Origin: Oligoflexales bacterium
Lineage (GTDB): Bacteria > Bdellovibrionota_B > Oligoflexia > Oligoflexales > RGVZ01
Direction of reading: 5' to 3'
Length of the DNA stretch: 64,000 bases
Assembly: GCA_947479535.1 (NCBI GenBank)
Contig: CANJZQ010000001.1
Coordinates: forward strand, 142,324-206,323
The stretch's first letter is position 1. Each line of letters begins with the position of its first letter. This document shows, piece by piece, positions 22,813 through 41,546 of the stretch. The translations under genes were made by a program, and so were the position numbers. The notes under the pieces were generated by a model, which worked only from the letters and a program-made list of their open reading frames with translations, was not told the DNA's origin and did not search any database.

Positions 22813-24555
22813 ATGGCTAAGATTGCTTTGATTGCGGGAAAGTTGGAACAGGTTCCTGTGATGCATGTGTTTTCACGCATGGCCTCAGTTCACGAGATTC
22901 GCATCCACGCTTTTCTTGGTTCCATACCGGATTCCATGCGCAATTGTGGGTTCGCATTCAGCCTTTATGAAGCGGATCCGACAAGGGCTGGTTATATGTC
23001 TGGATTGGAAGATCAAATTGCAGACGCGGATCTAATTGTCGTGGCAGGGCCGGAGAACCTCTCCTCGTTTCAGGCAATGCGCTCTGCCTTGAAGAATAAT
23101 ATTCATTGCCACGTAATTTCATTTGATCTTGTTCCCCAGCCATTTGATGATTTCGTAAATATCCGGGCCATCCGCCAAGATGTTTTGAATCGCTGCCAGA
23201 TCATATGGACGACTGGCGAGCGGTCCATTGAAGCCCTGACATTTGAAGGGTATGAGCTTCAGCGAATCCACAACTTGCCGGCTATTTTTGATGGGGAATC
23301 TTTCCCGTTGGATGCTTTGCGCAGCAATAAGTTCAGAGACCATGTTGGAATCAGCCGGGATTCTTTTGTGGTTCTTTTTCAGGATGTGCTTGATCACAAA
23401 GGTGCTGCTGGGGAGTTAGTCAAGGCATTGCATGCACTTCGGGCATCCGGTAACCCTGACTTTGAAAGGTTAGTGGTCTTGTTTTCTGGTCAACGCGAGG
23501 GTTCGGAACCTTTAAAATACATGATTTCCGATTGGCGTCTCTCCAGTCACGTCAGGTTTCTTCATCAGAATAGCTCTGAATTTACTTTGGACTTGTTGAA
23601 TGGAAGCGATCTTGTCGTCGGACCCTGTCATGGTCGGTCAAGCGAAGCACACGTCTTGGCAGCGATTTCCAGTATGGTCGGAGCTCGTCCCCTTCTGAAT
23701 GTTTCACAAACGACAGGCGGTTGGCTTGACATGCCGTGCTTGAGTGTCTCTGAGTACACCAGCCTTCCTCTCGCAAAGGCCATCAAAAACGGTTTGGCCA
23801 CCAGTGATTCAAGGTTGGAGCGGCGTGAGAACTTTCTCAAAGTGATTAGCTCTGCTGATCGGCAGATTGATTCTCAAAACTTCATAGACTTGATTCAGCG
23901 TTCAACGGTGAAATCAGCCTCTCAAAGCGCAACGGCAAAAGATCAATATCTTGAGCAGCAAGTTGCTACAGTTGAATCGATGGGTGCCGGTACATCGCTC
24001 GATGAGAGGTTGCATGCCGTTGAAGATCTTCTGTTGCGTGAACCACCACCTCCACTCGCAGCAAGGGCCCATATGTTCAAGGGGTCTGCTCTGTATGCAG
24101 CGGGTAATTACGAGGCAGCGACCGATGCCTATCGCGCAGCATTGCTGTCCATGCATGGTGTACCAAACGGAGAAAGTTCGCCTCAGCCGCGTTCATTGAT
24201 TTCCAGCTGTTACCGGGGGCTGGGGAATGTTGCAGCCGCGGTTCAATCCCATCAAGAAGCACTCGATCTCTACCGGCGCGCCCTTGCCTTGGAACCACAA
24301 GATTCCCTCACTTGTGCGGGCATCGGAAACGTCTACCGTCGTCTGCGTCTTTATGATGAGTCGCTGCATTGGTTGGCGAAATCGGCTTTGTCGACGCCCG
24401 GTGACGAGTCTGCATTGACGCGCTTTTCTCAAGTCCTTCTTGAGTGTCCAGAAAAACCTGTGGCCGCAAAAGCCTTGATTGACGTCCTTCAGGTGGTTGG
24501 CGAGCATCCCTCGCTAGCGAAAGCGATGGTCAGCCTGGATGTTCGTCTGGATTGA
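22813..24555 (+). CDS. GT-B glycosyltransferase-like N-terminal region fused to C-terminal TPR repeats
   Basis: GGGAGG SD. The middle segment FVVLFQDVLDHKGAAGELVKAL..LVVLFSGQREG..SDLVV resembles a GT4 C-domain, but the catalytic motifs are unclear. C-terminal TPRs (AYRAALL.., YRRALALEPQD). Confidence 0.5.
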   Translation: MAKIALIAGKLEQVPVMHVFSRMASVHEIRIHAFLGSIPDSMRNCGFAFSLYEADPTRAGYMSGLEDQIADADLIVVAGPENLSSFQAMRSALKNNIHCHVISFDLVPQPFDDFVNIRAIRQDVLNRCQIIWTTGERSIEALTFEGYELQRIHNLPAIFDGESFPLDALRSNKFRDHVGISRDSFVVLFQDVLDHKGAAGELVKALHALRASGNPDFERLVVLFSGQREGSEPLKYMISDWRLSSHVRFLHQNSSEFTLDLLNGSDLVVGPCHGRSSEAHVLAAISSMVGARPLLNVSQTTGGWLDMPCLSVSEYTSLPLAKAIKNGLATSDSRLERRENFLKVISSADRQIDSQNFIDLIQRSTVKSASQSATAKDQYLEQQVATVESMGAGTSLDERLHAVEDLLLREPPPPLAARAHMFKGSALYAAGNYEAATDAYRAALLSMHGVPNGESSPQPRSLISSCYRGLGNVAAAVQSHQEALDLYRRALALEPQDSLTCAGIGNVYRRLRLYDESLHWLAKSALSTPGDESALTRFSQVLLECPEKPVAAKALIDVLQVVGEHPSLAKAMVSLDVRLD

Positions 24556-29094: not shown

Positions 29095-30018
29095 ATGGGT
29101 CTGAGAATCAGAACCAACGTCCAGTCATTGGTGGCTCAAAGGCATTTTGGCACGTCCACCAAGGGTGTTGCAGCCCAGACGGAGAAACTTTCCTCTGGAT
29201 TCAGGATCAACAAGGGTGCCGATGATGCTGCTGGATTTGCAATCGCCGAGGGTTTGAAGGGTGATATTCGGGCTCTTGGCCAGGCTCGTCGCAACGCCAA
29301 TGATGCTGTCTCCCTCGTGGAAGTTGCGGAAGGCGGCCTCGACGAGATCAATAACATTATGATCCGTTTGCGCGAGCTTTCAGTCCAGGCTGCCTCTGAT
29401 ACCATCGGAGCCCGTGAGCGCGGTTACTTGAACGAAGAGTACATGGCCCTCAAAGACGAGATCGACCGGATAGCGGTCTCAACTGAATTTAACGGTACGC
29501 GTTTATTGACTGGACAGAAGGAACTCGATCCTTCGCTGCTATCGGAACACAACTATTCCCCCCTCGAAGTCCAGGTCGGCAAGGATTACTTTCCCGGGCC
29601 AGACGCATTGTCTACTCCCAATCCGATTAACATAATCCGGATGAACCTTGGTAATTTCAACGCATCCACGGAAGGCGAAGATTCCCTTGGCCTCGGCAGT
29701 GCCCAGAACTCTGAAGGCTCCCGGGTGAATGACAAGGTCGCGGCGCAAAACGCCATGATGGTAATCGATAATGCGATGAACAAGATTGCCTCCTATCGCG
29801 GCACTTTAGGCGCGACTCAGAATCGATTCCAGAGTACGGACCGTAACCTTGGCATTCAAATTGAAGCATTGACAGCCGCCCGTTCACGGATCAAAGACGC
29901 CGACTTTGCGATGGAATCAGCGGAACTTGCGCAGCAGAGTATTTTGCAGCAAGCTGGCGTGTCGGTGTTGTCGCAGGCCAATCAGTTGCCAAATATTGCA
30001 CTAAAGCTACTTCAGTAA
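29095..30018 (+). CDS. fliC: Flagellin (short, 307 aa)
   Basis: N-terminal MGLRIRTNVQSLVAQR..LSSGFRINKGADDAAGFAIAEGL and C-terminal TLGATQNRFQST..SILQQAGVSVLSQANQLPNIALKLLQ conserved D0/D1 helices. GAGGGAG SD. Confidence 0.9.
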   Translation: MGLRIRTNVQSLVAQRHFGTSTKGVAAQTEKLSSGFRINKGADDAAGFAIAEGLKGDIRALGQARRNANDAVSLVEVAEGGLDEINNIMIRLRELSVQAASDTIGARERGYLNEEYMALKDEIDRIAVSTEFNGTRLLTGQKELDPSLLSEHNYSPLEVQVGKDYFPGPDALSTPNPINIIRMNLGNFNASTEGEDSLGLGSAQNSEGSRVNDKVAAQNAMMVIDNAMNKIASYRGTLGATQNRFQSTDRNLGIQIEALTAARSRIKDADFAMESAELAQQSILQQAGVSVLSQANQLPNIALKLLQ

Positions 30019-30019
30019 T

Positions 30020-32557
30020 TTAACGCAGATCGATCAAGGCTTTTAACTTGCCGGTGCGGCTCACCCGTGTGATGCCGCCGCTGGCGTGCGCCACGACTAG
30101 GAGTCGTGGAGACACCCAGGCCCGGGGGTGCTGCGCCTGCAGGTCTTTTGAGTGGCTGTAAACCAAGTCGACAAGAGACCCCTCTTTCAATTGTTCAGCG
30201 TTCTCATGCTCAACATGAAATTCGATGGTTTCCCGGGCTGACTCATCCTGTTTCAGGATAATTTGAAACATGGCCCCGTCCAGATTGCAGTCTGCCAGCG
30301 CTTTTTCAAAGTCATTGATGAAAAGACGACACGCCCAGACATTGAATTGACTGTCTGATCTACCGAGCAAACGGAATCTGACATCGCTGCTTCCGCACTC
30401 GCAATCACCATGTTTCTCAGCAATCCACTCCAAAAGGTCTCCGGTACAGAGACGGATGATGGGCATTTTCTTTTTGATGCGAGATGTAACAACGCCTTCA
30501 CCGTTTATGATTTCGAGATGAACACAGTCTGAAAATAAATGATGAATTCCATCAACGCTGAATCGACACTGATAGCCGATTGGACCTGCGTCGACCGAGG
30601 CGTAACCTGCCGATCCAAAATAGGTGGTTCCTGCAACTGTACCAAGAAATTTTCTTGCGACGACACTGAGATGTTCTCCCGCGTACAACACTGCCGGCAT
30701 GGAAATGGTGCGTCCCGTTTCCTTGGCGTGCCGTGCAAGTTCCACTAGCTGTGTTGGCAAGCCAACGACAAACTGAGGTTGGAATCGCTCAAGGTAAGTC
30801 AACGTTTGGTCTTTGTCTGCTAGACCTCCAATGGGCAAAACCGTGGCGCCGATCTTTGCCATGGCTTGATCCACTGCCATGAATGACGACCAAAGGTTTC
30901 CTGCAACAAAAAGATTCGCCACTACGATCCCCGGGACTATGCCTTGAGCCCGAAATCCAAGCGCCAGTAGTTCTGCCACCTGACTGAATTCATCGTGTGT
31001 GTAGATTGCATATTTTGGAGCGCCCGACGTGCCACCAGATGAGAAAATATAGCCACCCCTCACCAGATCATTAGTCGCCTTGTGGGTGAATCGCGACAGT
31101 TTCTCCCCGTTCGCAGTGTCGAGGTCTGCCCCCTTGATCAGTGGCATGTCGGTGATTTTGGTTACCAACTTGCCTTCCCGCAACTCACGATAGAATGGAA
31201 CGTTTGAAATGGCGTCATTCGCCAAACCTTCAAGTGTCCCGTCGAGTTCTTCCGGAACGATTCTGGTCAACTCAACGAGGGTCATTTTTCCATCATGTGG
31301 CGCTCCGATCGGCGCTTGCATGACTTGACCGAGCTGGGCAAATCGCATCACACCCATGGCGCCCAATGCGGCAATCATGGTCTGCTTTTCGGCATCCGTT
31401 GCGAGAAGTGAGCATGATTGCAGATAGCGCGCAAATGGGGAGAGCTGTTTTTTCAGATCATCAAGTGAATCGTAGGTTTTGCAGATCAGACTCCGGTTTA
31501 GTGGTGACGTGCGAAGTCCCGGACTTGGATCGTAGTGCAGGAGATAGTCTTTTCCGTTGCGAAAATCGCCGCCATTTTCGATCTTGTTGTATTGTGCTCT
31601 CGCGAGTTCCTTCAAAATCTCGACATGCTCATCGTCCGAGAGGCGCCCGCGGGCGTATTGGAAGTTTTGCAGGGCAATTTCTGTGTGGTTCATGAGTCCT
31701 GCGATGTCGGCTCCACGCTCGATGAACAGATTTTGGGGCGATGCACATGCCGCCTGATCCCACATGGCGATGTCCTGTGCGACCCAGGCGCCGGCCTGAG
31801 CCAAACCATGGCGTTCAAGGGCATCGCGCGTGATGGTTTGAAATGAAATTTTGGGACCGTACTCAATGAATTTGACGCCTAAAGGGAGCCCCTTTTTGTA
31901 GGAGTGAATCATTTCCTCCCCACCCCAGGCGATGATTCCGTTGGATTCCCTTTTGATCAAGGACTCCACAGCCTGTATCCCACTGGGAAAGTGAATCAGG
32001 GCGAACTTGTCACTCAAAATCCCCTCGTGATCGATATCCCTGATGGACTCTGCAAACAGCATGGGAAAAGACAGGTTGCGTGAGCTGAGTTTTACGAGCG
32101 ACACATTTTTTGTCAGGAAGCCCATCAGGAGTGAATCGATGGCTCCAAGGAATACGTTCCCGGCAGAAACGTGAAATAAAATCCCGAGAGGGAATGCACG
32201 CTCCATCCCGCCAAACGCATGGCTTTTGACGAATCCGTCAAGTTTATCCGGTCCGCCAAAGTCTGCTTTGATTCGTGCGCCGATGTTCCGTGCATTCAGA
32301 AGTTCAGGAATGACGTCCAATGAATGAGCGATCATGTCATCACTGAACGGGACTTCGTTTCTGGTCAAATCAAAGGCGCGGGACCAATAGTCCGAACCAT
32401 GCACCCAGGCGTTGCTCAGACGATCCAGCACATCCACGATTTTCCGAACCGGTTGAGAAACCATCGCGGGGCAGCGGAGGCGGGCATCAAGAAAGGCCTT
32501 TGTCAGAAACGCCTCATCGCAAACAGCGTGTGGGGTTTCATTTCCGAAGAGATACAT
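30020..32557 (-). CDS. Fusion protein: LuxC-type acyl-CoA/acyl-protein reductase domain plus PaaK/F390-synthetase-like adenylating domain
   Basis: The N-terminal ~470 aa carries WDQAACASPQNLFIE (ALDH-type catalytic Cys, ~31740-31768). The C-terminal ~375 aa carries FSSGGTSGAPKY (~31020-31050). GGAAGGA SD; starts 3 nt after the luxE-like stop. Confidence 0.7.
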   Translation of the reverse strand: MYLFGNETPHAVCDEAFLTKAFLDARLRCPAMVSQPVRKIVDVLDRLSNAWVHGSDYWSRAFDLTRNEVPFSDDMIAHSLDVIPELLNARNIGARIKADFGGPDKLDGFVKSHAFGGMERAFPLGILFHVSAGNVFLGAIDSLLMGFLTKNVSLVKLSSRNLSFPMLFAESIRDIDHEGILSDKFALIHFPSGIQAVESLIKRESNGIIAWGGEEMIHSYKKGLPLGVKFIEYGPKISFQTITRDALERHGLAQAGAWVAQDIAMWDQAACASPQNLFIERGADIAGLMNHTEIALQNFQYARGRLSDDEHVEILKELARAQYNKIENGGDFRNGKDYLLHYDPSPGLRTSPLNRSLICKTYDSLDDLKKQLSPFARYLQSCSLLATDAEKQTMIAALGAMGVMRFAQLGQVMQAPIGAPHDGKMTLVELTRIVPEELDGTLEGLANDAISNVPFYRELREGKLVTKITDMPLIKGADLDTANGEKLSRFTHKATNDLVRGGYIFSSGGTSGAPKYAIYTHDEFSQVAELLALGFRAQGIVPGIVVANLFVAGNLWSSFMAVDQAMAKIGATVLPIGGLADKDQTLTYLERFQPQFVVGLPTQLVELARHAKETGRTISMPAVLYAGEHLSVVARKFLGTVAGTTYFGSAGYASVDAGPIGYQCRFSVDGIHHLFSDCVHLEIINGEGVVTSRIKKKMPIIRLCTGDLLEWIAEKHGDCECGSSDVRFRLLGRSDSQFNVWACRLFINDFEKALADCNLDGAMFQIILKQDESARETIEFHVEHENAEQLKEGSLVDLVYSHSKDLQAQHPRAWVSPRLLVVAHASGGITRVSRTGKLKALIDLR

Positions 32558-32560
32558 GGC

Positions 32561-33709
32561 TCACATCCTTCCGGGAGTTTCGTCAAGTAGCTTGGAAGCA
32601 GTCAATGCACAGCCTTTGTGTTTGTGAACGCCGGCACGTCCAAGGATTTCGAGTGTCGCTCCCCCAATGCCGCAGTCACATTCTCCGATGCGCCCATAAT
32701 CCGTCGTCAAAAGGCTGATGCTTGGATAGCTGGTTACATAGGAGCAAAGGAAATGAATCAGGCCAGTATCGCCGTTTGAAACCACGCTAAAATCTTTCGG
32801 CGAGCGAATATAAACCCTGGCATAATTCGGTATGTGAAGATGCCCTCTGGAGCAGTCACAATAAGGGATTCCGTGTTCTACCATTCCAAACATGTCCCGG
32901 TTGTTGGATGCCGGAATCCCAAGCCTGTCTGTCATGAAGTTTCGAAAATCCGCCTTTGGGACCTCCTCGTTGGTAAATCCCTTCCATCCTCCTCCAGTTT
33001 GAATCCAACTGTTGGTGGGGAGTCGCAACTTGATATTGTTGTCGCGCACGATTTTGTACAAGTGTGCAGGAAACCCCAATATCCGGACGGGCTTCGGTGA
33101 GGCTGCGTAGCGCTCAAGGGTTTCGATGACCCCCTTGACGTTTAAAGAGAAGTCATTCTTGGCCTGATCCCATTGGATCGCATAGTAGACCTCGTTTTTT
33201 TTTGTGAAACTTGTGAGCAATTCATCCGTGAAGGCTGTGCCAAGGTTAGTGGCAACCTTTGGATCGTAAGTAAAACAAAGGTAATTCACTTCGTCCTCGG
33301 ACGTCATGCCCAGGGCGTCATGGATCATCCACGCCAGTTTTTTTACGCGAAGCAGCGACTGGTGATCGAGCAGTATCTGGCTTTTCTGTCCGCTTGTTCC
33401 GGAACTTGTAAGATTCAGGACGACATCGGCAGGCGATCCCGTGATGAGTTCGTGCTCTTTAAAAAGGTTCACCATGATGGGTGGTACGCGAGTCAAGTCG
33501 TGTTCCGATTTAATATCGGCGGGCTTGATGCCTGCAAGATCCCACAAGCCGCGGAAGTAGGAGTTTCCTTTGTAGTGAACTTCAGCACACGTTACAAAAC
33601 TTTCACGAAAAAACGCCTGGGATTCTTTGGAATTGTCGAATGGATTGCTTGAAAACAATCGATCGATACCAGAGTGGATCTGGTCTGATGTTTGCTTTGC
33701 CGGTGGCAT
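32561..33709 (-). CDS. LuxE-type acyl-protein synthetase
   Basis: LTSSGTSGQKSQI adenylation loop (~33380-33412). Overall length is ~380 aa. A Cys lies in HKGCALTAS about 15 residues from the C-terminus. ATG is 1 nt after the upstream stop. Confidence 0.7.
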   Translation of the reverse strand: MPPAKQTSDQIHSGIDRLFSSNPFDNSKESQAFFRESFVTCAEVHYKGNSYFRGLWDLAGIKPADIKSEHDLTRVPPIMVNLFKEHELITGSPADVVLNLTSSGTSGQKSQILLDHQSLLRVKKLAWMIHDALGMTSEDEVNYLCFTYDPKVATNLGTAFTDELLTSFTKKNEVYYAIQWDQAKNDFSLNVKGVIETLERYAASPKPVRILGFPAHLYKIVRDNNIKLRLPTNSWIQTGGGWKGFTNEEVPKADFRNFMTDRLGIPASNNRDMFGMVEHGIPYCDCSRGHLHIPNYARVYIRSPKDFSVVSNGDTGLIHFLCSYVTSYPSISLLTTDYGRIGECDCGIGGATLEILGRAGVHKHKGCALTASKLLDETPGRM

Positions 33710-33710
33710 G

Positions 33711-34871
33711 CTAGGGCTCCATGGTCTGATGCGGCTTCAGGAATTGCTCTTGAATGTTCCGGATATATTCCTCGAGGTAGATTCGATTCTTACCTGCCAG
33801 TTTTAAATGTCGGAAATCGAGTATTTCAAATGTCCTGCTGAGAACAACGAAATCATACCGGTGACTGCCGTTGAGTTGAAACGCGGGGAAGTATGCGCAG
33901 GGTAAAAACCTGGCACGAAGCACCCGTTCAATGGTTTTTGCCTTGTCAGCCCGGACAAGGATTTCAAGGTACCGGACCCCGATCGTGTTCAGGAGCTTGA
34001 CCGATTGCTCGAGGATGTCTGCAAAGTCATATTCCCGCGGCTTCTTTACGCCCATGATCACACAATGATCATCAACCTCAGACTTGTAGACGAATATCTC
34101 CACCGTTTGGCATGGTGAGCTGATCACCATGTTCGGTGAGTGGAATGGATAGAAGTGGGCGTGGAGAAGGTCTTGATCCCGCTGCCCTTCAAAACGGCAC
34201 CTTGCAAACCTTTCCGCTTGGATCAGTTCAAGCTTTATTGAGTCTGGATAATCGTTCAACGCCAAATCCGCCTCATTGGCTGGAGTGAGCCGCGCCAATG
34301 TGCATTCTGTACGCACGATTTCATAAAGATTTATGATTGCCGGATGCAACCGGAAATCCTGGAACCTGGCCCAAAGTGCTTCGGTCGTAAAAAATGCAGT
34401 CAGGCAATGTGTTTCATAAACATCCGTCTTGTGAACGTTTGGGAAAATGCCAAGCTTTTTGTACCCAAGGTGTTCCGTTACGATTTGGGGGGCAGGGCTC
34501 GAAGTTCGTGTGGTCGCATAGATGACGTCTACGATGCCAAGGGTATTCGTGAGGTGTTCTTGGGCAAAAACCATCGCACGTTCAAGGATCCGGTAGCCCC
34601 GGTACGTCGACAGCACTGCCCCTCCAAATGCCCGGGCCAAGCGGTGCAACTTGTCGCTTTCATATACGACGGAGCCAACAATCTGTCCTTGTTCCTCGGC
34701 AATAACCCAGACATTAGCCGGGTCTTCAAGGAATTTTGTCAGGAGGCCTGTATCTCGCATCAAGCGGTTGGTATAATTTCCACCATAGACCAATTGATAC
34801 AAAACAGAGATGCCGGTTGCATCCTGCGGAGTTGCAAGACGAAGGTTTGGTGTCAGCAACTTTGTTGTCAT
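33711..34871 (-). CDS. GNAT-like acyltransferase domain protein (386 aa)
   Basis: ATG 34871 (MTTKLLTPNLRLATPQD). VWVIAEEQGQIVGSVVYE..VLSTYRGYRILERAMVFAQEHL resembles GNAT motif A. The C-terminal half is unassigned. The track start 34967 would overlap the divergent MFS gene. Confidence 0.5.
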   Translation of the reverse strand: MTTKLLTPNLRLATPQDATGISVLYQLVYGGNYTNRLMRDTGLLTKFLEDPANVWVIAEEQGQIVGSVVYESDKLHRLARAFGGAVLSTYRGYRILERAMVFAQEHLTNTLGIVDVIYATTRTSSPAPQIVTEHLGYKKLGIFPNVHKTDVYETHCLTAFFTTEALWARFQDFRLHPAIINLYEIVRTECTLARLTPANEADLALNDYPDSIKLELIQAERFARCRFEGQRDQDLLHAHFYPFHSPNMVISSPCQTVEIFVYKSEVDDHCVIMGVKKPREYDFADILEQSVKLLNTIGVRYLEILVRADKAKTIERVLRARFLPCAYFPAFQLNGSHRYDFVVLSRTFEILDFRHLKLAGKNRIYLEEYIRNIQEQFLKPHQTMEP

Positions 34872-34889
34872 TCGGTGGTGTTCTCCGTG

Positions 34890-34902
34890 GTCACGGCGTG
34901 AC
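34890..34902. promoter_or_regulatory. Candidate operator palindrome in the divergent GNAT/MFS control region
   Basis: GTCAC-GGC-GTGAC is a perfect inverted repeat. It lies 19 nt upstream of the GNAT ATG and 34 nt upstream of the MFS ATG. Confidence 0.3.
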
Positions 34903-34935
34903 AGTTGATTATCCAATATTCCTACGGAGCCTGCA

Positions 34936-36201
34936 ATGTCGCGAACGAGTAACCTGTTGATCCGCAATCGCGACTTTCGGCTCGTCTGGTGCAGTCAGGT
35001 TTTAAGTCAAGCGGGCAGCCGCGCCTTTTTTATTAATTTGCTGTGGTGGATTATCAGTTCTGCGCCAGAGGTTCGTGGTGGAGGGTCTGCCTCGACTTGG
35101 GCCAGCGGCATACTTTTGACTATTCTAGGTTTGCCTTCGGTTCTTTTGGTTCGGTGGATAGGGAGGGTCCTTGAACGTTATTCTTCACAGAAGATTATGG
35201 TTTTTTGCGAAGTGGCGGGAGCCCTGTTGTCGTTGGTGGTTTTTGGTCTGTCCGTCTCTGGGAACCTCACGCTCGGGTGGGTTTACGGTCTGTCGGGTTT
35301 GATTGCCCTGTGCCAGGCGCTGGTTGATCCAGCCCTCGTGAAGGTTGTTCCGGAGCTGGTCGAGGAAGCTGATATCGAGGCGGCAGTTGGACTTGAGTCG
35401 TCGACCCAGGCGCTAGCCTATTTCTCTGGTGCAGCAATCGGTGCGATTGCAAGTGGAATCCTCGGATTTTCAGTGACCACCGCGATCAACGCACTCAGTT
35501 ACGGGGTGTCAGCGTTTATGACATCGCGTGCTCGATTCCGTCCGAGTTCCATTGCAGCGAATCACGAATCTACGGAACGTGGGTTGTCAAATGTGCCGAG
35601 TTCGCAGGATGGTTGGGCCAACCAGGTTGGCCCACTGCTAAAGGCATTTGGTGCGGCAAATGTTTTCATGTTCCCTATTTTCCTTGTTCTGCCACTTTTT
35701 GTGAAAGATTCGCTGCAAGGTAGCGTTATTGTCTTGGGTCTTCTTGAATCCTGTTTTTGGTTTGGATTGGTAGCAGGCGCAAATCAGGCTTGGCGACTTG
35801 ACGCTGAGGGCAGGTTCTTGAAGATGTCAGCGATTCTATTTTTTCTTTTTGGTTCGCTGATCTGTAGTATTGCCCTTAATCCATCAGTGGTCTGGGTGGC
35901 GGTTGTGCTGGTATGCGGTGGGATAAGCGCTGGCCTGGTGAATGTTAAAGTAATCACTTACTTCCAAATTGTCGTGCCCGAATCTGCGAGGGCTAAATTT
36001 TTCGCCCAGCTTCAAGCCTATGTTGCTGGAGCTCAACCTTTGAGCTACTTGCTGTTTACAGGGATCCTTCTCGTTCTTTCCCCGGTGCACTCATTTGCGC
36101 TCATTGGATTCGGCTTGGCGATGGTTGGTGCATTTTGCTGGTGGTACGAAAAACGCATGATAAAGTTCAATGCGGCAAAATTACTGGAGATTGGCAATTG
36201 A
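34936..36201 (+). CDS. MFS transporter
   Basis: About 12 predicted hydrophobic helices in a two-halves layout (LVWCSQVLSQAGSRAF.. N-terminus). 421 aa. Confidence 0.8.
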   Translation: MSRTSNLLIRNRDFRLVWCSQVLSQAGSRAFFINLLWWIISSAPEVRGGGSASTWASGILLTILGLPSVLLVRWIGRVLERYSSQKIMVFCEVAGALLSLVVFGLSVSGNLTLGWVYGLSGLIALCQALVDPALVKVVPELVEEADIEAAVGLESSTQALAYFSGAAIGAIASGILGFSVTTAINALSYGVSAFMTSRARFRPSSIAANHESTERGLSNVPSSQDGWANQVGPLLKAFGAANVFMFPIFLVLPLFVKDSLQGSVIVLGLLESCFWFGLVAGANQAWRLDAEGRFLKMSAILFFLFGSLICSIALNPSVVWVAVVLVCGGISAGLVNVKVITYFQIVVPESARAKFFAQLQAYVAGAQPLSYLLFTGILLVLSPVHSFALIGFGLAMVGAFCWWYEKRMIKFNAAKLLEIGN

Positions 36202-37406
36202 AGGCTTTTAGCGTCATTCTAATGCTTTCTTTTTCGTTGCACCTTGCCTCCTGCGAGATTCTGCGGCGTGGAGCCGTGAGTCTTCTGTCGTCCGAACAAC
36301 CCCCGTCCAGTTCAATGAATGCAGGGTTGGCTGTTTTGTCTGCGAGCGAAATGCCCGATGACAAAAGCCACGCTCTCAAACTGGAGCCCGTTGCTGGTGG
36401 ATTTGAAGGCATTACGGATGTCCAGTTTCTTCCGGGCCAGGCCATGCAGGTTGTGGTTCTTCAAAAAAATGGCACGGCGTTTTTAGTGAACCTGAAGGAT
36501 GGTGTGAGGGCAAAATTATTTAGCCTCAATGTGGCCACCACATCCGAGCTAGGGCTTTTGGGATTTGCATTTCATCCAGCGTTTTACGAGTCAAAGAAAT
36601 TTTATGTTCATTACAACCCGAAGAGTGATCTTTCCCGTGTAACTGAGTGGGAGTGGACTGAAGGTGGCAGTCCAGCAACGATTGCTTGCAAGGAAAAACG
36701 GGTCATATTTGAAGTTAAACAACCATACCAAAATCATAATGGCGGCAGTTTGGTTTTTGGACCTGACCGCAAGCTTTACATTGGTTTAGGTGATGGGGGG
36801 TGGAGGGGAGACCCGGAAAATAGAGCGCAAGATTTCGGGTCTTTGTTGGGAAAGATGCTCAGGATTGATGTCGAACAAACGATTGATGGTAAATATCTCC
36901 CTGAGATCTTCGCGTCTGGACTTCGAAATCCATGGAAATACTCATTTGACTCCAAGGGCAGGTTGGTGGCCGGTGATGTTGGGCAAGACAAATGGGAGGA
37001 GATAACCTTCGTAGAGAAGGGCGCAAATCTCGGTTGGCGGATTTACGAAGGGTCCCATTGTTACGATCCGCCCCAAGATTGTGAGAAAGTCGTCCGCAAT
37101 CTAGTTGGCCCCATCGCAGAATACGATCACGCGTTGGGGGTTAGTGTGACCGGAGGCTTTGAATACAGTGGCTCATCGTTGCCGTCCCTGAAAGGTAGAT
37201 ACCTGTTTGGTGATTTTGCAACAGGAAGGATCTGGAGCATTGTGTTGCCAGAAAAGACTCCGGTTCGCCCGCTCTCTGGTAAGAACCTTCGATACCACGG
37301 CAGATGGCCGGTTCTGATCTCTACGTTTGCAAAGGATTCAGCTGGTGAAATATATGTCGCAGATTATTCCGGTGGTAACATTTACCGGATTGCTTCCGTC
37401 AATTAA
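36198..37406 (+). CDS. PQQ-dependent sugar (glucose/sorbosone-type) dehydrogenase lipoprotein
   Basis: TTG 36198 overlaps the MFS stop (TTGA) and gives (M)KAFSVILMLSFSLHLASC (lipobox). Motifs LLGFAFHPAF, HNGGSLVFGPDRKLYIGLGDGG, GLRNPWKYSFD and AGDVGQDKWEEI. Confidence 0.8.
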   Translation: MKAFSVILMLSFSLHLASCEILRRGAVSLLSSEQPPSSSMNAGLAVLSASEMPDDKSHALKLEPVAGGFEGITDVQFLPGQAMQVVVLQKNGTAFLVNLKDGVRAKLFSLNVATTSELGLLGFAFHPAFYESKKFYVHYNPKSDLSRVTEWEWTEGGSPATIACKEKRVIFEVKQPYQNHNGGSLVFGPDRKLYIGLGDGGWRGDPENRAQDFGSLLGKMLRIDVEQTIDGKYLPEIFASGLRNPWKYSFDSKGRLVAGDVGQDKWEEITFVEKGANLGWRIYEGSHCYDPPQDCEKVVRNLVGPIAEYDHALGVSVTGGFEYSGSSLPSLKGRYLFGDFATGRIWSIVLPEKTPVRPLSGKNLRYHGRWPVLISTFAKDSAGEIYVADYSGGNIYRIASVN

Positions 37407-37606: not shown

Positions 37607-37622
37607 TGGCCTGGACTTTGCT
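37607..37622 (+). promoter_or_regulatory. Sigma54 (-24/-12) promoter of the flgF operon
   Basis: TGGCCTGGACTTTGCT has GG and GC elements at exactly the consensus TGGCACG-N4-TTGCW spacing. It lies ~60 nt upstream of the flgF ATG. Confidence 0.6.
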
Positions 37623-39351: not shown

Positions 39352-40521
39352 ATGAGATGCGCGAGAAGAACCATTCGAATAATGCGGGCTGTGGCTTTGT
39401 TCACGGCCGGCATTTTTCTTTTTGAATTTGGGGCAGTTCTTGCGGCGGTTATCAAGTCCGCGCCTTTGCAGCCAGCATCTTCGCGTGGTGATATTGAGAA
39501 AAGTTCGGCAACATCGACGGACCATTTGCCTGTGTCGGATGAAAAATCAATCGGACTGGAATTCCGTCCTCGTGTCGAAATTGAGTCGTCGAGGGTGATG
39601 CTTGATCAGATCGCCTTCTGCGTCCCCGCGCGAACCAGGCATCATGATTGCGCTGAGATTCTCGCTGTTGATGCTGGTCCAGCGCCAGCGCCTGGAAAGA
39701 CTGCAAGAATTAGCCGGGCAGGGATTTTGGAAATTCTGACCAATGAGTTCCCCGGCACAAGGGTCGAAGTCCTCGGGCCTGAAAGTTCATTTGTAAGTTC
39801 ACGCGGAATTTCTCTGGCTGATGAGGCCCTCGCAGTTCCTTTTCGTGAACAAATCGATGAGTTGTTTTCGGGTGCTGCGGACTTTCGGATCCAGGTTTCT
39901 GGAGTTCGTATTGAATCGCGGCCCCAAGTCCGTCCAGGATCCATTAGTTGCCGCTTCGCACAGCTGGACCTTTTAAAGCGCAGGATGGCAGAGCCATCGG
40001 GTGCGTCAATTGAATCAGATCTCGAGAGTCTTCTGACGCGAATTCACAATGGCGCGCAGTTCAATGCGCAGTGCATGCAGCCAGGCACTGAGGTAGGTGA
40101 GGCCCAGTTCTACGTGCAGTTTTCGCCAAGGATTATTGTAGAGCGGCAGATGCCATTAGCCCGCAGGGATCTTGCGGCCAAGACAGTTTTTGCGGTTGAG
40201 GATTCCGTGCTGGGTTGGGTTCCCTGGACGCGGAGTGCTGGGCGCGCACTCCGTGATGCAAGCTCGTTGGCAGGCATGTCCCTGCTTCGACAGGTGCAGG
40301 CCGGTCAGATGCTGATGTTCAATGATTTCGAAAGGCCTCTTGCCGTCCGGCGTGGTGATAGCGTTCAGCTGATGCAGAAGTCTGGCGAACTAACCATCTC
40401 TGGGAACGCAATTGTGATAACCCAGGGTGCAATTGGTGAACGCATTGAAGTTCAAACAACTGCAACGAAAAAGCGCCTCCGGGCGGTTGTTCGGTCGAAC
40501 AGCGCTGTGGAGGCAATGTGA
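39352..40521 (+). CDS. flgA: Flagellar P-ring assembly chaperone FlgA (enlarged)
   Basis: C-terminal SAF-type region VRRGDSVQLMQKSGELTISGNAIVITQGAIGERIEVQTTATKKRLRAVV. Position is between flgG and flgH. N-terminal signal/anchor. 389 aa is unusually long. Confidence 0.6.
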   Translation: MRCARRTIRIMRAVALFTAGIFLFEFGAVLAAVIKSAPLQPASSRGDIEKSSATSTDHLPVSDEKSIGLEFRPRVEIESSRVMLDQIAFCVPARTRHHDCAEILAVDAGPAPAPGKTARISRAGILEILTNEFPGTRVEVLGPESSFVSSRGISLADEALAVPFREQIDELFSGAADFRIQVSGVRIESRPQVRPGSISCRFAQLDLLKRRMAEPSGASIESDLESLLTRIHNGAQFNAQCMQPGTEVGEAQFYVQFSPRIIVERQMPLARRDLAAKTVFAVEDSVLGWVPWTRSAGRALRDASSLAGMSLLRQVQAGQMLMFNDFERPLAVRRGDSVQLMQKSGELTISGNAIVITQGAIGERIEVQTTATKKRLRAVVRSNSAVEAM

Positions 40522-41546
40522 AGTTTTTCCCAATTAAATTCCTTCATCCGTTTCTGCTGTTTACGGCGGCTTTGGGTGCTGGCTGTCAGACCTCTCACGT
40601 TATTTCTGAACGCCCAGTGGATCCAGTTATCGCTGGTGTTCAGGATCAGAATCTGGTCCCTCACGGACCGGGGGCTCCAGTTCCGGAGAGGCAGGATGTC
40701 TTTCTTCGCGAACATCGTACCGTTATCTCTGAGGCGCCACGTGATCCCGATCAAACCGGGTCTCTTTTTTCCCTGGACGACTCGCGTAGCAACCTCATTG
40801 TTCACAGTCCATTGCGTGCGGGAATGCTGCTCGATATTAAAGTCTTAACATCGCGTTCGCCGGCTGCTGGAGACCAGTCGAAGGCTCAGAGGGGGTCAAG
40901 CAAGACCGGGGATGTGGGGGCCGGATCCGAAGGTTTATCTGCCGCATTGCCGAAACTTGAGCCGACGGTCGCCGGGGCGGGGCCTCTAAAGTCGTTCAAA
41001 ATGCGATTAGACTCAATCCTTCCAAACGGCGATGGGATGGTGTCGGTTACCCGGCGCTCCAGTCGGACCGGGGACTTTCATGAAGTCTATGCCAAGGCCA
41101 GGATTCCGGCAGAACAAATGATTCCCGGGGCAGAGTTGAGCACGTCGAATTTATTTGATGTTGCGTGGATGGATTTTGATGGGTCCCAAACCACGGAGCG
41201 TCATTCCACGGCTTGGGAGGACGAATATTCGCTGCGCCTCAGCGGTTTTGAGGAATTAAGGTCAAAAGAAGCTCTTGCCGTGGAGGAGGGGCGTCGCCAG
41301 GTTCAAATTGAAAAGGACAAGGTTTCGGAGGAAACGCGAAGGATGACCGACGAGCGTGCCCGGTCGGCAAAACAGCGGGATGAATTGCAGCAGAAACTTC
41401 GAGAGGCTGAGGCCAAAATCTCCGAGCTCCAGAAGGGTGCGGCCGCAGCCCTGACCAATGGCGCTCCAGCAACATCACCAGTGCCTCCAGCACCGCCAGC
41501 GGGAGCTCAAGCAGCGAATGGAGGCTCGAATGCGCAGAAGAAGTAA
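40518..41546 (+). CDS. flgH: Flagellar L-ring lipoprotein FlgH with C-terminal coiled-coil/Pro-Ala extension
   Basis: GTG overlaps the flgA stop (GTGA). Lipobox LGAGC. Motifs GSLFSLDDSRSNL..LRAGMLLDIKV and ILPNGDGMVSV fit FlgH. The last ~100 aa are a charged heptad-like region plus PVPPAPPAGAQA. Confidence 0.7.
   Translation: MKFFPIKFLHPFLLFTAALGAGCQTSHVISERPVDPVIAGVQDQNLVPHGPGAPVPERQDVFLREHRTVISEAPRDPDQTGSLFSLDDSRSNLIVHSPLRAGMLLDIKVLTSRSPAAGDQSKAQRGSSKTGDVGAGSEGLSAALPKLEPTVAGAGPLKSFKMRLDSILPNGDGMVSVTRRSSRTGDFHEVYAKARIPAEQMIPGAELSTSNLFDVAWMDFDGSQTTERHSTAWEDEYSLRLSGFEELRSKEALAVEEGRRQVQIEKDKVSEETRRMTDERARSAKQRDELQQKLREAEAKISELQKGAAAALTNGAPATSPVPPAPPAGAQAANGGSNAQKK

Follow-up and report, generated by a model that had tools for sequence, protein, structure and literature searches.

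We have analysed a 64,000-nucleotide stretch of the genome of an Oligoflexales bacterium (assembly GCA_947479535.1, contig CANJZQ010000001.1, positions 142,324 to 206,323 of the forward strand; the whole stretch is referred to here as the window), in which a five-gene cassette lies between the flagellin gene fliC and the flg operon. We conclude that this cassette probably encodes a minimal pathway of the leupeptin type, independent of nonribosomal peptide synthetases (NRPS), in which a peptide aldehyde is made and then exported. Its core is a triad of genes coding for a GNAT-type acyltransferase, a LuxE-type acyl-protein synthetase and a fusion of a LuxC-type reductase with a PaaK-type adenylating domain; beside these, in the divergent direction, are a major facilitator superfamily (MFS) transporter and a predicted lipoprotein of the glucose/sorbosone dehydrogenase (GSDH) family, whose members depend on pyrroloquinoline quinone (PQQ). 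The evidence for this conclusion comes from homology to the leupeptin (leup) operon of Klebsiella, from shared domain architecture, from conserved catalytic residues and from the linkage of the genes across many genomes. The enzymatic logic of the cassette is already known from leup, and what is new is the two-module form with a tandem GNAT, and the added dehydrogenase. More generally, the cluster is probably a compact, widespread and mis-annotated route to peptide-aldehyde protease inhibitors in under-studied, often predatory phyla.

The LuxC-PaaK fusion and the LuxE-type synthetase

The gene adjoining fliC (30020–32557, minus strand) encodes an 845-aa didomain protein that is a homologue of LeupB, the corresponding protein of the leupeptin operon. 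Its N-terminal part (approximately 31262–32455, minus strand) is a LuxC-type thioester reductase domain (Pfam LuxC, E = 1.5e-66, residues 35–432), and its C-terminal part (approximately 30023–31234, minus strand) is a PaaK-type adenylating domain with a P-loop, SGGTSG, at residues 507–512 and a TGK837 motif. The Pfam AMP-binding match to the C-terminal part (1.3e-5) falls under the gathering score, and the assignment is supported instead by the NCBIfam PaaK-like model (1.5e-25, residues 442–844) and by structures in the PDB, where the fusion matches both LuxC (7xc6_A) and PaaK (4r1l and 2y4o). Residues C271, G508/G509 and K837 are among those invariant across 25 homologues, and C271 aligns with the catalytic Cys296 of Photobacterium LuxC.

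The next gene (32561–33709, minus strand) codes for a 382-aa LuxE-type acyl-protein synthetase, a LeupA homologue (Pfam LuxE, 7.5e-51) that aligns with Photobacterium LuxE (7xc6_E), the KGCxL motif included. For the Photobacterium LuxC–LuxE complex the catalytic residues have been defined as Lys238, Arg355 and Cys364 in LuxE and Cys296 in LuxC (PMC9157457); in the window protein the first three correspond to K243 (within GGGWK), R358 and the acyl-acceptor C367, the last of which aligns with the acylation site, as the initial annotation of this region had suggested, and is kept in 81 of 81 homologues. The resemblance to the complex of luminous bacteria (PDB 7xc6; PMC9157457) extends over the folds and these catalytic residues, and presumably over the relay of adenylation, self-thioesterification, transfer to LuxC and reduction by NADPH, but the window differs in that LuxD and LuxAB are missing, LuxC is fused to PaaK, and GNAT and transporter genes are linked. 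Pfam sweeps of the window, covering open reading frames (ORFs) of at least 150 aa, found no luxAB, luxD, polyketide synthase or NRPS, and a tblastn search of the window for an acyl carrier protein (ACP) gave a best E value of 5, amounting to none found; luxD and luxAB do not recur in the related loci either. The cassette is not a Lux fatty-acid reductase at the equivalog level, the fusion scoring 84 bits against the NCBIfam LCFA_red_LuxC model (cut-off 750) and the synthetase 111 bits against LCFA_lig_LuxE (cut-off 550).

We note that the fusion family, Klebsiella LeupB included, bears the UniRef label 'long-chain-fatty-acyl-CoA reductase', and that RefSeq labels the fusion in three of the related loci (L088, L091 and L092) as 'acyl-CoA reductase' with the Gene Ontology term GO:0008218, bioluminescence. 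These fatty-acyl and bioluminescence labels are systematic mis-annotations of the family. Both proteins have, besides their catalytic residues, clusters of well conserved cysteines, comprising C145, C286, C344 and C346 in LuxE (91–94% conserved) and C664, C719 and C721 in the PaaK domain of the fusion (90–92%), and the CxC motifs among them suggest a structural metal site.

A tandem GNAT protein

The first gene of the triad (33711–34871, minus strand) encodes a 386-aa protein whose Pfam GNAT match (0.0025) is under the gathering score, the assignment being supported by profile search. The AlphaFold2 (AF2) model of the full-length protein has a predicted local distance difference test (pLDDT) score of 91.1, and a Foldseek search of the PDB with its N-terminal domain (approximately residues 8–165) gives ArsN/PAT/SpeG as the best match (E = 6e-11), the structural matches of this domain being amino-acid and polyamine N-acetyltransferases. 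The C-terminal domain (approximately residues 215–350), modelled alone with a pLDDT of 91.6, likewise finds GNATs (E = 5e-7); its fold is more divergent, and it has no recognisable CoA motif. As both halves show the GNAT fold, the protein is a tandem GNAT. The proposals in the initial annotation that the triad includes GNAT-like and PaaK-like components are therefore upheld, though by routes other than Pfam, and Pfam itself supports the LuxC, LuxE, MFS and GSDH domain calls.

Relationship to the leupeptin operon

A search with the fusion protein of a Salmonella plasmid (described below) led to a locus of Klebsiella michiganensis, L093, and to 801-aa homologues in hundreds of genomes of that species. 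The locus (5,826 bp) encodes an MFS protein, a LuxE (375 aa), a LuxC-PaaK fusion (801 aa), a PaaK-like ligase (444 aa) and a GNAT (305 aa). For leupABCD a 5,831-bp interval has been published, with a transporter beside it and with diagnostic primers (PMC8283571). Because the primers leupA_f and leupB_r match perfectly within the LuxE and fusion genes of L093, at a spacing that equals the published amplicon size of 1,235 bp, we identify this locus as the leupeptin operon. The same five leup components are listed in a 2026 preprint (10.64898/2026.08.25.747093), and the operon gives rise to leupeptin and to an Arg-Leu pyrazinone derived from it (PMC11480411). In Klebsiella (K. michiganensis/oxytoca), LeupA is the LuxE-type protein, LeupB the LuxC-PaaK fusion, LeupC a PaaK-type ligase and LeupD the GNAT.

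The window proteins match three of these four components. The fusion aligns with LeupB over 750 aa at 27% identity with both domains collinear, and the two have in common the Cys of the DQxACxSPQ motif and the SGGxSG P-loop; the match (E = 1e-59) is much stronger than that to Photobacterium LuxC (E = 1e-17). LuxE is 35% identical to LeupA (E = 7e-71), and alignment of the GNAT profile with LeupD by hhalign gives a probability of 96% (E = 3.4e-9) in the N-domain only. The two systems are also alike in having a C-terminal Cys in LuxE and an adjacent MFS gene, and in making do without a carrier protein or NRPS. They differ in that leup has three adenylating modules, one of them LeupC, and the window two; the Klebsiella GNAT has 305 aa, against the 386 aa of the tandem protein in the window; the window places the GNAT gene first and the MFS gene, which belongs to another family, divergently; the window adds a PQQ-dehydrogenase lipoprotein; and the hosts are Gammaproteobacteria in one case and Bdellovibrionota in the other. 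When four LeupC-type ligases were compared with the full window by tblastn, the sole match was to the C-terminal domain of the fusion, and a third ligase of this type is present in only 5 of 86 related loci. The window cassette is homologous to the leupeptin operon but, lacking LeupC, lies outside leupABCD proper.

A further form of the cassette was recovered, as was the shorter one of the Salmonella plasmid, by tblastn of plasmids. Megaplasmids of Streptomycetaceae (NZ_CP109501, NZ_CP108248 and NZ_CP034351), with unrelated flanks, carry an operon of a PaaK-family ligase, an MFS protein, a GNAT of 378–381 aa, an acyl-protein synthase and an 845-aa 'acyl-CoA reductase'. The resemblance to the window includes the tandem GNAT (28% identity over the full length), the MFS protein (30–31%), LuxE (34%), the fusion (27%) and the GNAT, LuxE, fusion gene order, the differences being that the LeupC-like ligase is extra, that the MFS gene is co-directional within the operon and that there is no GSDH gene. 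The Streptomycetaceae LuxE and fusion are closer to Leup (54% identical to LeupA and 41–42% to LeupB) than to the window proteins, and the ligase is 39% identical to LeupC. By these identities the Streptomyces operon bridges the leup and window forms.

In the literature searched, genes for leupeptin biosynthesis are treated only for Klebsiella and for unrelated NRPS routes of Streptomyces; a paper outside that scope, by Li et al. in 2020 (Angew Chem 59:17872), reportedly concerns NRPS-free leupeptin work in Photorhabdus and Xenorhabdus. The routes to leupeptin in Streptomyces roseus and to livipeptin in S. lividans, which are NRPS- or tRNA-dependent, were considered and set aside as unrelated to the cassette, and the acyl-ACP reductase TabE of the tambjamine pathway is a distant analogue resembling aldehyde dehydrogenases.

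The transporter and the dehydrogenase lipoprotein

Two genes on the plus strand complete the cassette. The first (34936–36201) encodes a 421-aa MFS transporter of the MFS_3/EntS/Mef-like type (Pfam MFS_1, 9e-17; MFS_3, 1.6e-13), which is the transport component of the cassette. An MFS gene adjoins the triad in nine of the related loci (L001–L004, L007, L067, L077, L078 and L085), and two proteins, P0417 (803 aa) and P0427 (799 aa), are natural fusions of an N-terminal MFS_1/MFS_3 domain with a C-terminal tandem GNAT of the window family. Such Rosetta-stone fusions tie the transporter functionally to the pathway and raise the possibility of transport-coupled acylation.

The second gene (36198–37406) encodes a predicted GSDH-family lipoprotein of 402 aa (Pfam GSDH, 3.2e-34). 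Its likeliest start is a TTG at 36198 that overlaps the MFS stop (TTGA), which couples its translation to that of the transporter gene; the protein has a predicted signal, MKAFSVILMLSFSLHLAS followed by C, with a LASC lipobox. Both the overlap and the lipoprotein character had been proposed at the outset. Among the related loci, L001/L002 and L007 alone have a GSDH gene beside the cassette, and the protein is a lineage-specific accessory of putative role. In a 56%-identical relative (L003, 4001–7714) the divergent MFS gene is followed instead by eutB and eutC, coding for ethanolamine ammonia-lyase, a single occurrence.

Distribution and genomic context of the cassette

Full-length relatives of the fusion protein number in the hundreds, and we have surveyed the neighbourhoods of 80 loci from named genomes plus metagenome contigs. 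Of the 67 genome loci whose upstream sequence is long enough, 57 have the GNAT, LuxE and fusion genes collinear in that order. Carriers of the triad include Bacteriovoracaceae, Halobacteriovoraceae, Oligoflexia and Elusimicrobia, with one complete Peredibacter genome, as well as Riflebacteria, Wallbacteria, Muiribacteriota, Cloacimonadota and Sericytochromatia; the culturable Peredibacter sp. HCB2-198 (NZ_CP174607, locus L041) is one carrier. Almost all of the Bacteriovoracaceae and Halobacteriovoraceae loci sampled have the two-module form with tandem GNAT, which extends to Oligoflexia, Elusimicrobia and further candidate phyla. Any other partner gene is limited to at most 31 of 82 loci, and where such genes recur they reflect synteny among the Bacteriovoracaceae. 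The closest genome is a metagenome-assembled genome (MAG) labelled Pseudobacteriovorax antillogorgiicola (Bdellovibrionota, Oligoflexia), in which the fusion is 87% identical and the flanking genes are 84–99% identical to those of the window.

The initial annotation had regarded the cluster as an orphan and had suggested, from its position, a link to modification of flagellin or of the flagellar sheath. Neither proposal can be maintained, since the triad is common across phyla and homologous to an experimentally defined operon, and its linkage to flagellar genes is not conserved. Among the 44 loci with at least 18 kb of sequence, flagellar neighbours stand beside the cassette in one, a MAG of the same genus (L007), which alone among the 80 genome loci has the fliC/flg layout; L001 has a 70%-identical block of all five genes, MFS and GSDH included, in an unrelated context that is not flagellar. 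With flagellar neighbours confined to one genus and the L001 block located elsewhere, the position beside flagellar genes is an accident of location particular to this lineage.

The most distant variants, in Clostridium ihumii and Wallbacteria, contain the LeupD-like GNAT region within proteins of about 500 aa. In the Wallbacteria MAG (L079, 9944–19314) the genes code for the fusion, an HATPase_c_2 protein, LuxE, a 510-aa protein with no Pfam match, a PaaK ligase and a MatE exporter, and the 493-aa HATPase_c_2 protein carries the GNAT region, joining it to a kinase-like ATPase domain. In C. ihumii (L083, 6383–12571) a LytTR response regulator is followed by a homologous 506-aa protein, LuxE and the fusion. 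A leup-like set is also present on a conjugative IncF plasmid of Salmonella enterica (L089, CP053580.1, 836–12437), where genes for a 121-aa hypothetical protein, LuxE, an 802-aa fusion that is 66% identical to Klebsiella LeupB, and a PaaK ligase, with no GNAT annotated, lie a few kb from those for an HlyD protein and a peptidase-domain ABC transporter, an exporter pair of the bacteriocin type.

Alternative functions

Several other functions could be envisaged for the cassette. A Lux-type reductase that supplies lipids, waxes or membrane remodelling with long-chain fatty aldehydes or alcohols, beside an unrelated or regulatory GNAT, accords with the strong Pfam LuxC and LuxE matches, the retention of the Photobacterium catalytic residues and the RefSeq label 'long-chain-fatty-acyl-CoA reductase'; it is at odds with scores far under the equivalog cut-offs, with the absence of LuxD, ACP and luxAB, with a match to LeupB that exceeds that to Photobacterium LuxC by a wide margin, and with the pattern of inheritance, in which a GNAT, a second adenylating domain and, in many cases, a transporter strictly accompany these genes, a pattern that fits a small-molecule pathway, and we consider it unlikely. 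The MFS gene raises a different prospect, in which an amine or amino-acid-like compound is imported, N-acylated and reductively processed for catabolism or resistance. The closest solved GNATs, ArsN and phosphinothricin acetyltransferase, are detoxifying amino-acid N-acetyltransferases, the MFS–acyltransferase fusions resemble uptake-coupled acylation systems, and L003 has its eutBC genes after MFS; however, two ATP-consuming modules and an NADPH-dependent reductase would be an expensive route, the sole characterised relative is biosynthetic, and the MFS protein resembles the exporters EntS and Mef, all of which makes salvage or detoxification distinctly unlikely.

Two further possibilities would place the product on the cell surface. 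The genes of the Vibrio cholerae O1 tetronate pathway, VC0248–0252 (PMC3441752), follow a similar logic of reductase, adenylating enzymes and acyltransferase, and WbeN (VC0251, 2478 nt), annotated as a reductase/synthase fusion, is required for the O1 antigen (PMC9915646), so that the cassette might supply an unusual N-acyl substituent for a surface glycan. This pathway, WbeK–O, is a looser analogue, compared by annotation only; no WbeK-type ACP, WbeM-type Fe-alcohol dehydrogenase or O-antigen context was found in the window, the neighbourhoods in the window and in the 80 related loci lack ACP and Fe-alcohol dehydrogenase genes as well as any for sugar nucleotides, glycosyltransferases or O-antigen export, and the recurrent partner of the cassette is an MFS small-molecule transporter, which leaves a glycan role very unlikely. 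The location between fliC and the sigma54-preceded flgF operon, identical in L007, makes it tempting to suppose that an acyl or aldehyde group built by the cassette is attached to flagellin or to the flagellar sheath, or forms a motility-coupled lipid or signal, and LuxC and LuxE homologues do occur outside bioluminescence and next to flagellar genes in the flagellin glycosylation islands of Aeromonas group II and Enterobacteriaceae (PMC7874193, PMC4875605). These islands, though, like WbeK–O, decorate glycans and include ACP, FabG or Fe-alcohol dehydrogenase, a CaiC-type ligase, and sugar and glycosyltransferase genes; the islands pair LuxC and LuxE with pse and Maf genes besides. The Pfam sweeps of the window found no FabG, CaiC, pse/neu, Maf or sugar-nucleotide genes, and an identification of the locus as a flagellin glycosylation island was rejected for want of ACP, FabG, pse, Maf and glycosyltransferase genes. 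Given also the restriction of flagellar neighbours to one genus, the non-flagellar setting of the L001 block and the presence of the cassette in Streptomyces and on Salmonella plasmids, the flagellar explanation is extremely unlikely, and the link is removed as unsupported.

A proposed pathway to peptide aldehydes

A leupeptin-type pathway to an exported peptide aldehyde is the function that we favour. Leupeptin is acetyl-Leu-Leu-argininal. The mass quoted for it (PMC11480411) is consistent with that structure, whose assembly calls for a single N-acetylation, the formation of two amide bonds and the reduction of one carboxylate and so fits the one GNAT, three adenylating modules and one LuxC of leup. 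In the window the adenylating modules number two, beside a single GNAT and a single LuxC, and no third ligase is present; the simplest reading is that one amide bond fewer is made than in leupeptin.

For the scheme that follows, we infer the substrates, the order of steps, the adenylating module that feeds the reductase, the direction of export and any part played by the GSDH protein. By analogy with the acetylation of leupeptin, the tandem GNAT would N-acylate an amino acid from acyl-CoA, and the PaaK domain would adenylate the N-acyl amino acid and ligate a second amino acid to it, forming one amide bond. LuxE would then adenylate the C-terminal carboxylate and hold the thioester on its own Cys367, from which the acyl group would move to Cys271 of the LuxC domain for release as the aldehyde by NADPH, and the MFS protein would export the product. 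In this lineage only, the periplasmic GSDH lipoprotein may, speculatively, act on the exported aldehyde or on a cyclised form of it. In a sub-variant the PaaK domain would make the acyl-CoA donor instead, and the product would be an N-acyl amino aldehyde. The expected product is thus an N-acyl dipeptide aldehyde or an N-acyl amino aldehyde, and its likely role is that of a protease inhibitor or of a precursor to a pyrazinone-type signal. The outline chemistry given in the initial annotation, which combines two ATP-dependent activations of carboxylates with N-acyl transfer, reduction of a thioester to the aldehyde and export, matches that of the leupeptin relative.

Several observations weigh against this assignment. 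Identity between the window and Leup proteins is just 27–35%, and at such distances the substrates may be very different, even compounds other than amino acids. The stand-alone LeupC ligase is absent from the window, the GNAT has an extra domain with only its N-domain common to LeupD and is without the canonical Q/RxxGxG/A CoA motif, and the MFS protein is unrelated to its Klebsiella counterpart beyond the superfamily; moreover, an MFS domain fused to an acyltransferase could signify uptake rather than export. The GSDH gene is confined to close relatives. The assignment of steps to LeupA–D is itself provisional, drawing on domain logic and on older leupeptin enzymology.

Few protease inhibitors are used as widely as peptide aldehydes of the leupeptin type, and those of Klebsiella and Photorhabdus influence host colonisation and signalling. 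The leup enzyme logic recurs across Bdellovibrionota, Elusimicrobia and several candidate phyla in an abridged version that has two adenylating modules and one tandem GNAT, and a full-length version is carried by Streptomyces megaplasmids. This offers a testable product class for a gene set mislabelled as 'long-chain fatty-acyl-CoA reductase / bioluminescence', a compact target of three or four genes for heterologous expression and for the discovery of new protease inhibitors, and a clue to the possible control of proteolysis in predatory bacteria. It is a tentative and rather doubtful further suggestion that the two-module tandem-GNAT form makes N-acyl amino or dipeptide aldehydes of kinds not yet described, and that the GSDH protein of the Pseudobacteriovorax lineage could oxidise them in the periplasm, yielding for example an inactivated acid or a signal of the pyrazinone type; if true, the mostly predatory Bdellovibrionota would hold dedicated small-molecule control over their own proteases or those of their prey.

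Gene arrangement and neighbouring features

The ORF map confirms the arrangement originally described for the region, with five ORFs between fliC and the flg operon, their spacing and the motifs quoted from them, and the window is likewise free, as had been proposed, of luxAB, luxD, ACP, PKS and NRPS genes. In the minus-strand operon the gaps are 3 nt between the fusion and LuxE genes and 1 nt between LuxE and GNAT, whose ATG start lies behind a Shine-Dalgarno sequence, GGAGAA. The fusion gene converges with fliC (29095–30018, plus strand), a single nucleotide separating the two stop codons (TAA t TTA, 30016–30022), and as no terminator-like hairpin was found between them, read-through from each side is expected to be antisense to the other gene. 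The GNAT and MFS starts are separated by a divergent intergenic region of 64 bp (34872–34935), in which each start is preceded by an SD-like GGAG and no consensus sigma70 promoter was found; from its position we presume it to be a shared control region. Scans for promoters and terminators gave counts no higher than shuffled sequence and are uninformative. The sigma54-type -24/-12 motif that had been placed at 37607 is present (TGGCCTGGACTTTGCT, 37607–37622, plus strand), 27 nt 5' of the TTG start of flgF, and is the single match in 64 kb against 1.6 expected by chance, and so not above chance. A check for horizontal acquisition, also proposed earlier, gave no signal of recent transfer, the GC content, GC3 and codon usage of the five genes being inside the spread of the window.

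The rest of the window consists of housekeeping genes and an ordinary flagellar cluster encoding FlgF, FlgG, FlgA, FlgI, FlgK, FlgL and FliW. Between flgA and flgI is a 342-aa ORF (40518–41546, plus strand) with no Pfam match, whose position would suggest either FlgH, the L-ring protein, or a basal-body protein specific to the lineage. The only glycosyltransferase-like match in the window is a weak, sub-threshold one to Glycos_transf_1 (E = 7.7e-6, residues 173–273) in a 580-aa protein (22813–24555, plus strand) encoded approximately 4.5 kb upstream of fliC, which also has tetratricopeptide repeats (TPR) at residues 401–497. The combination of glycosyltransferase and TPR is reminiscent of flagellin glycosyltransferases such as Caulobacter FlmG, and as a candidate for modifying flagellin this protein would be preferable to the cassette.

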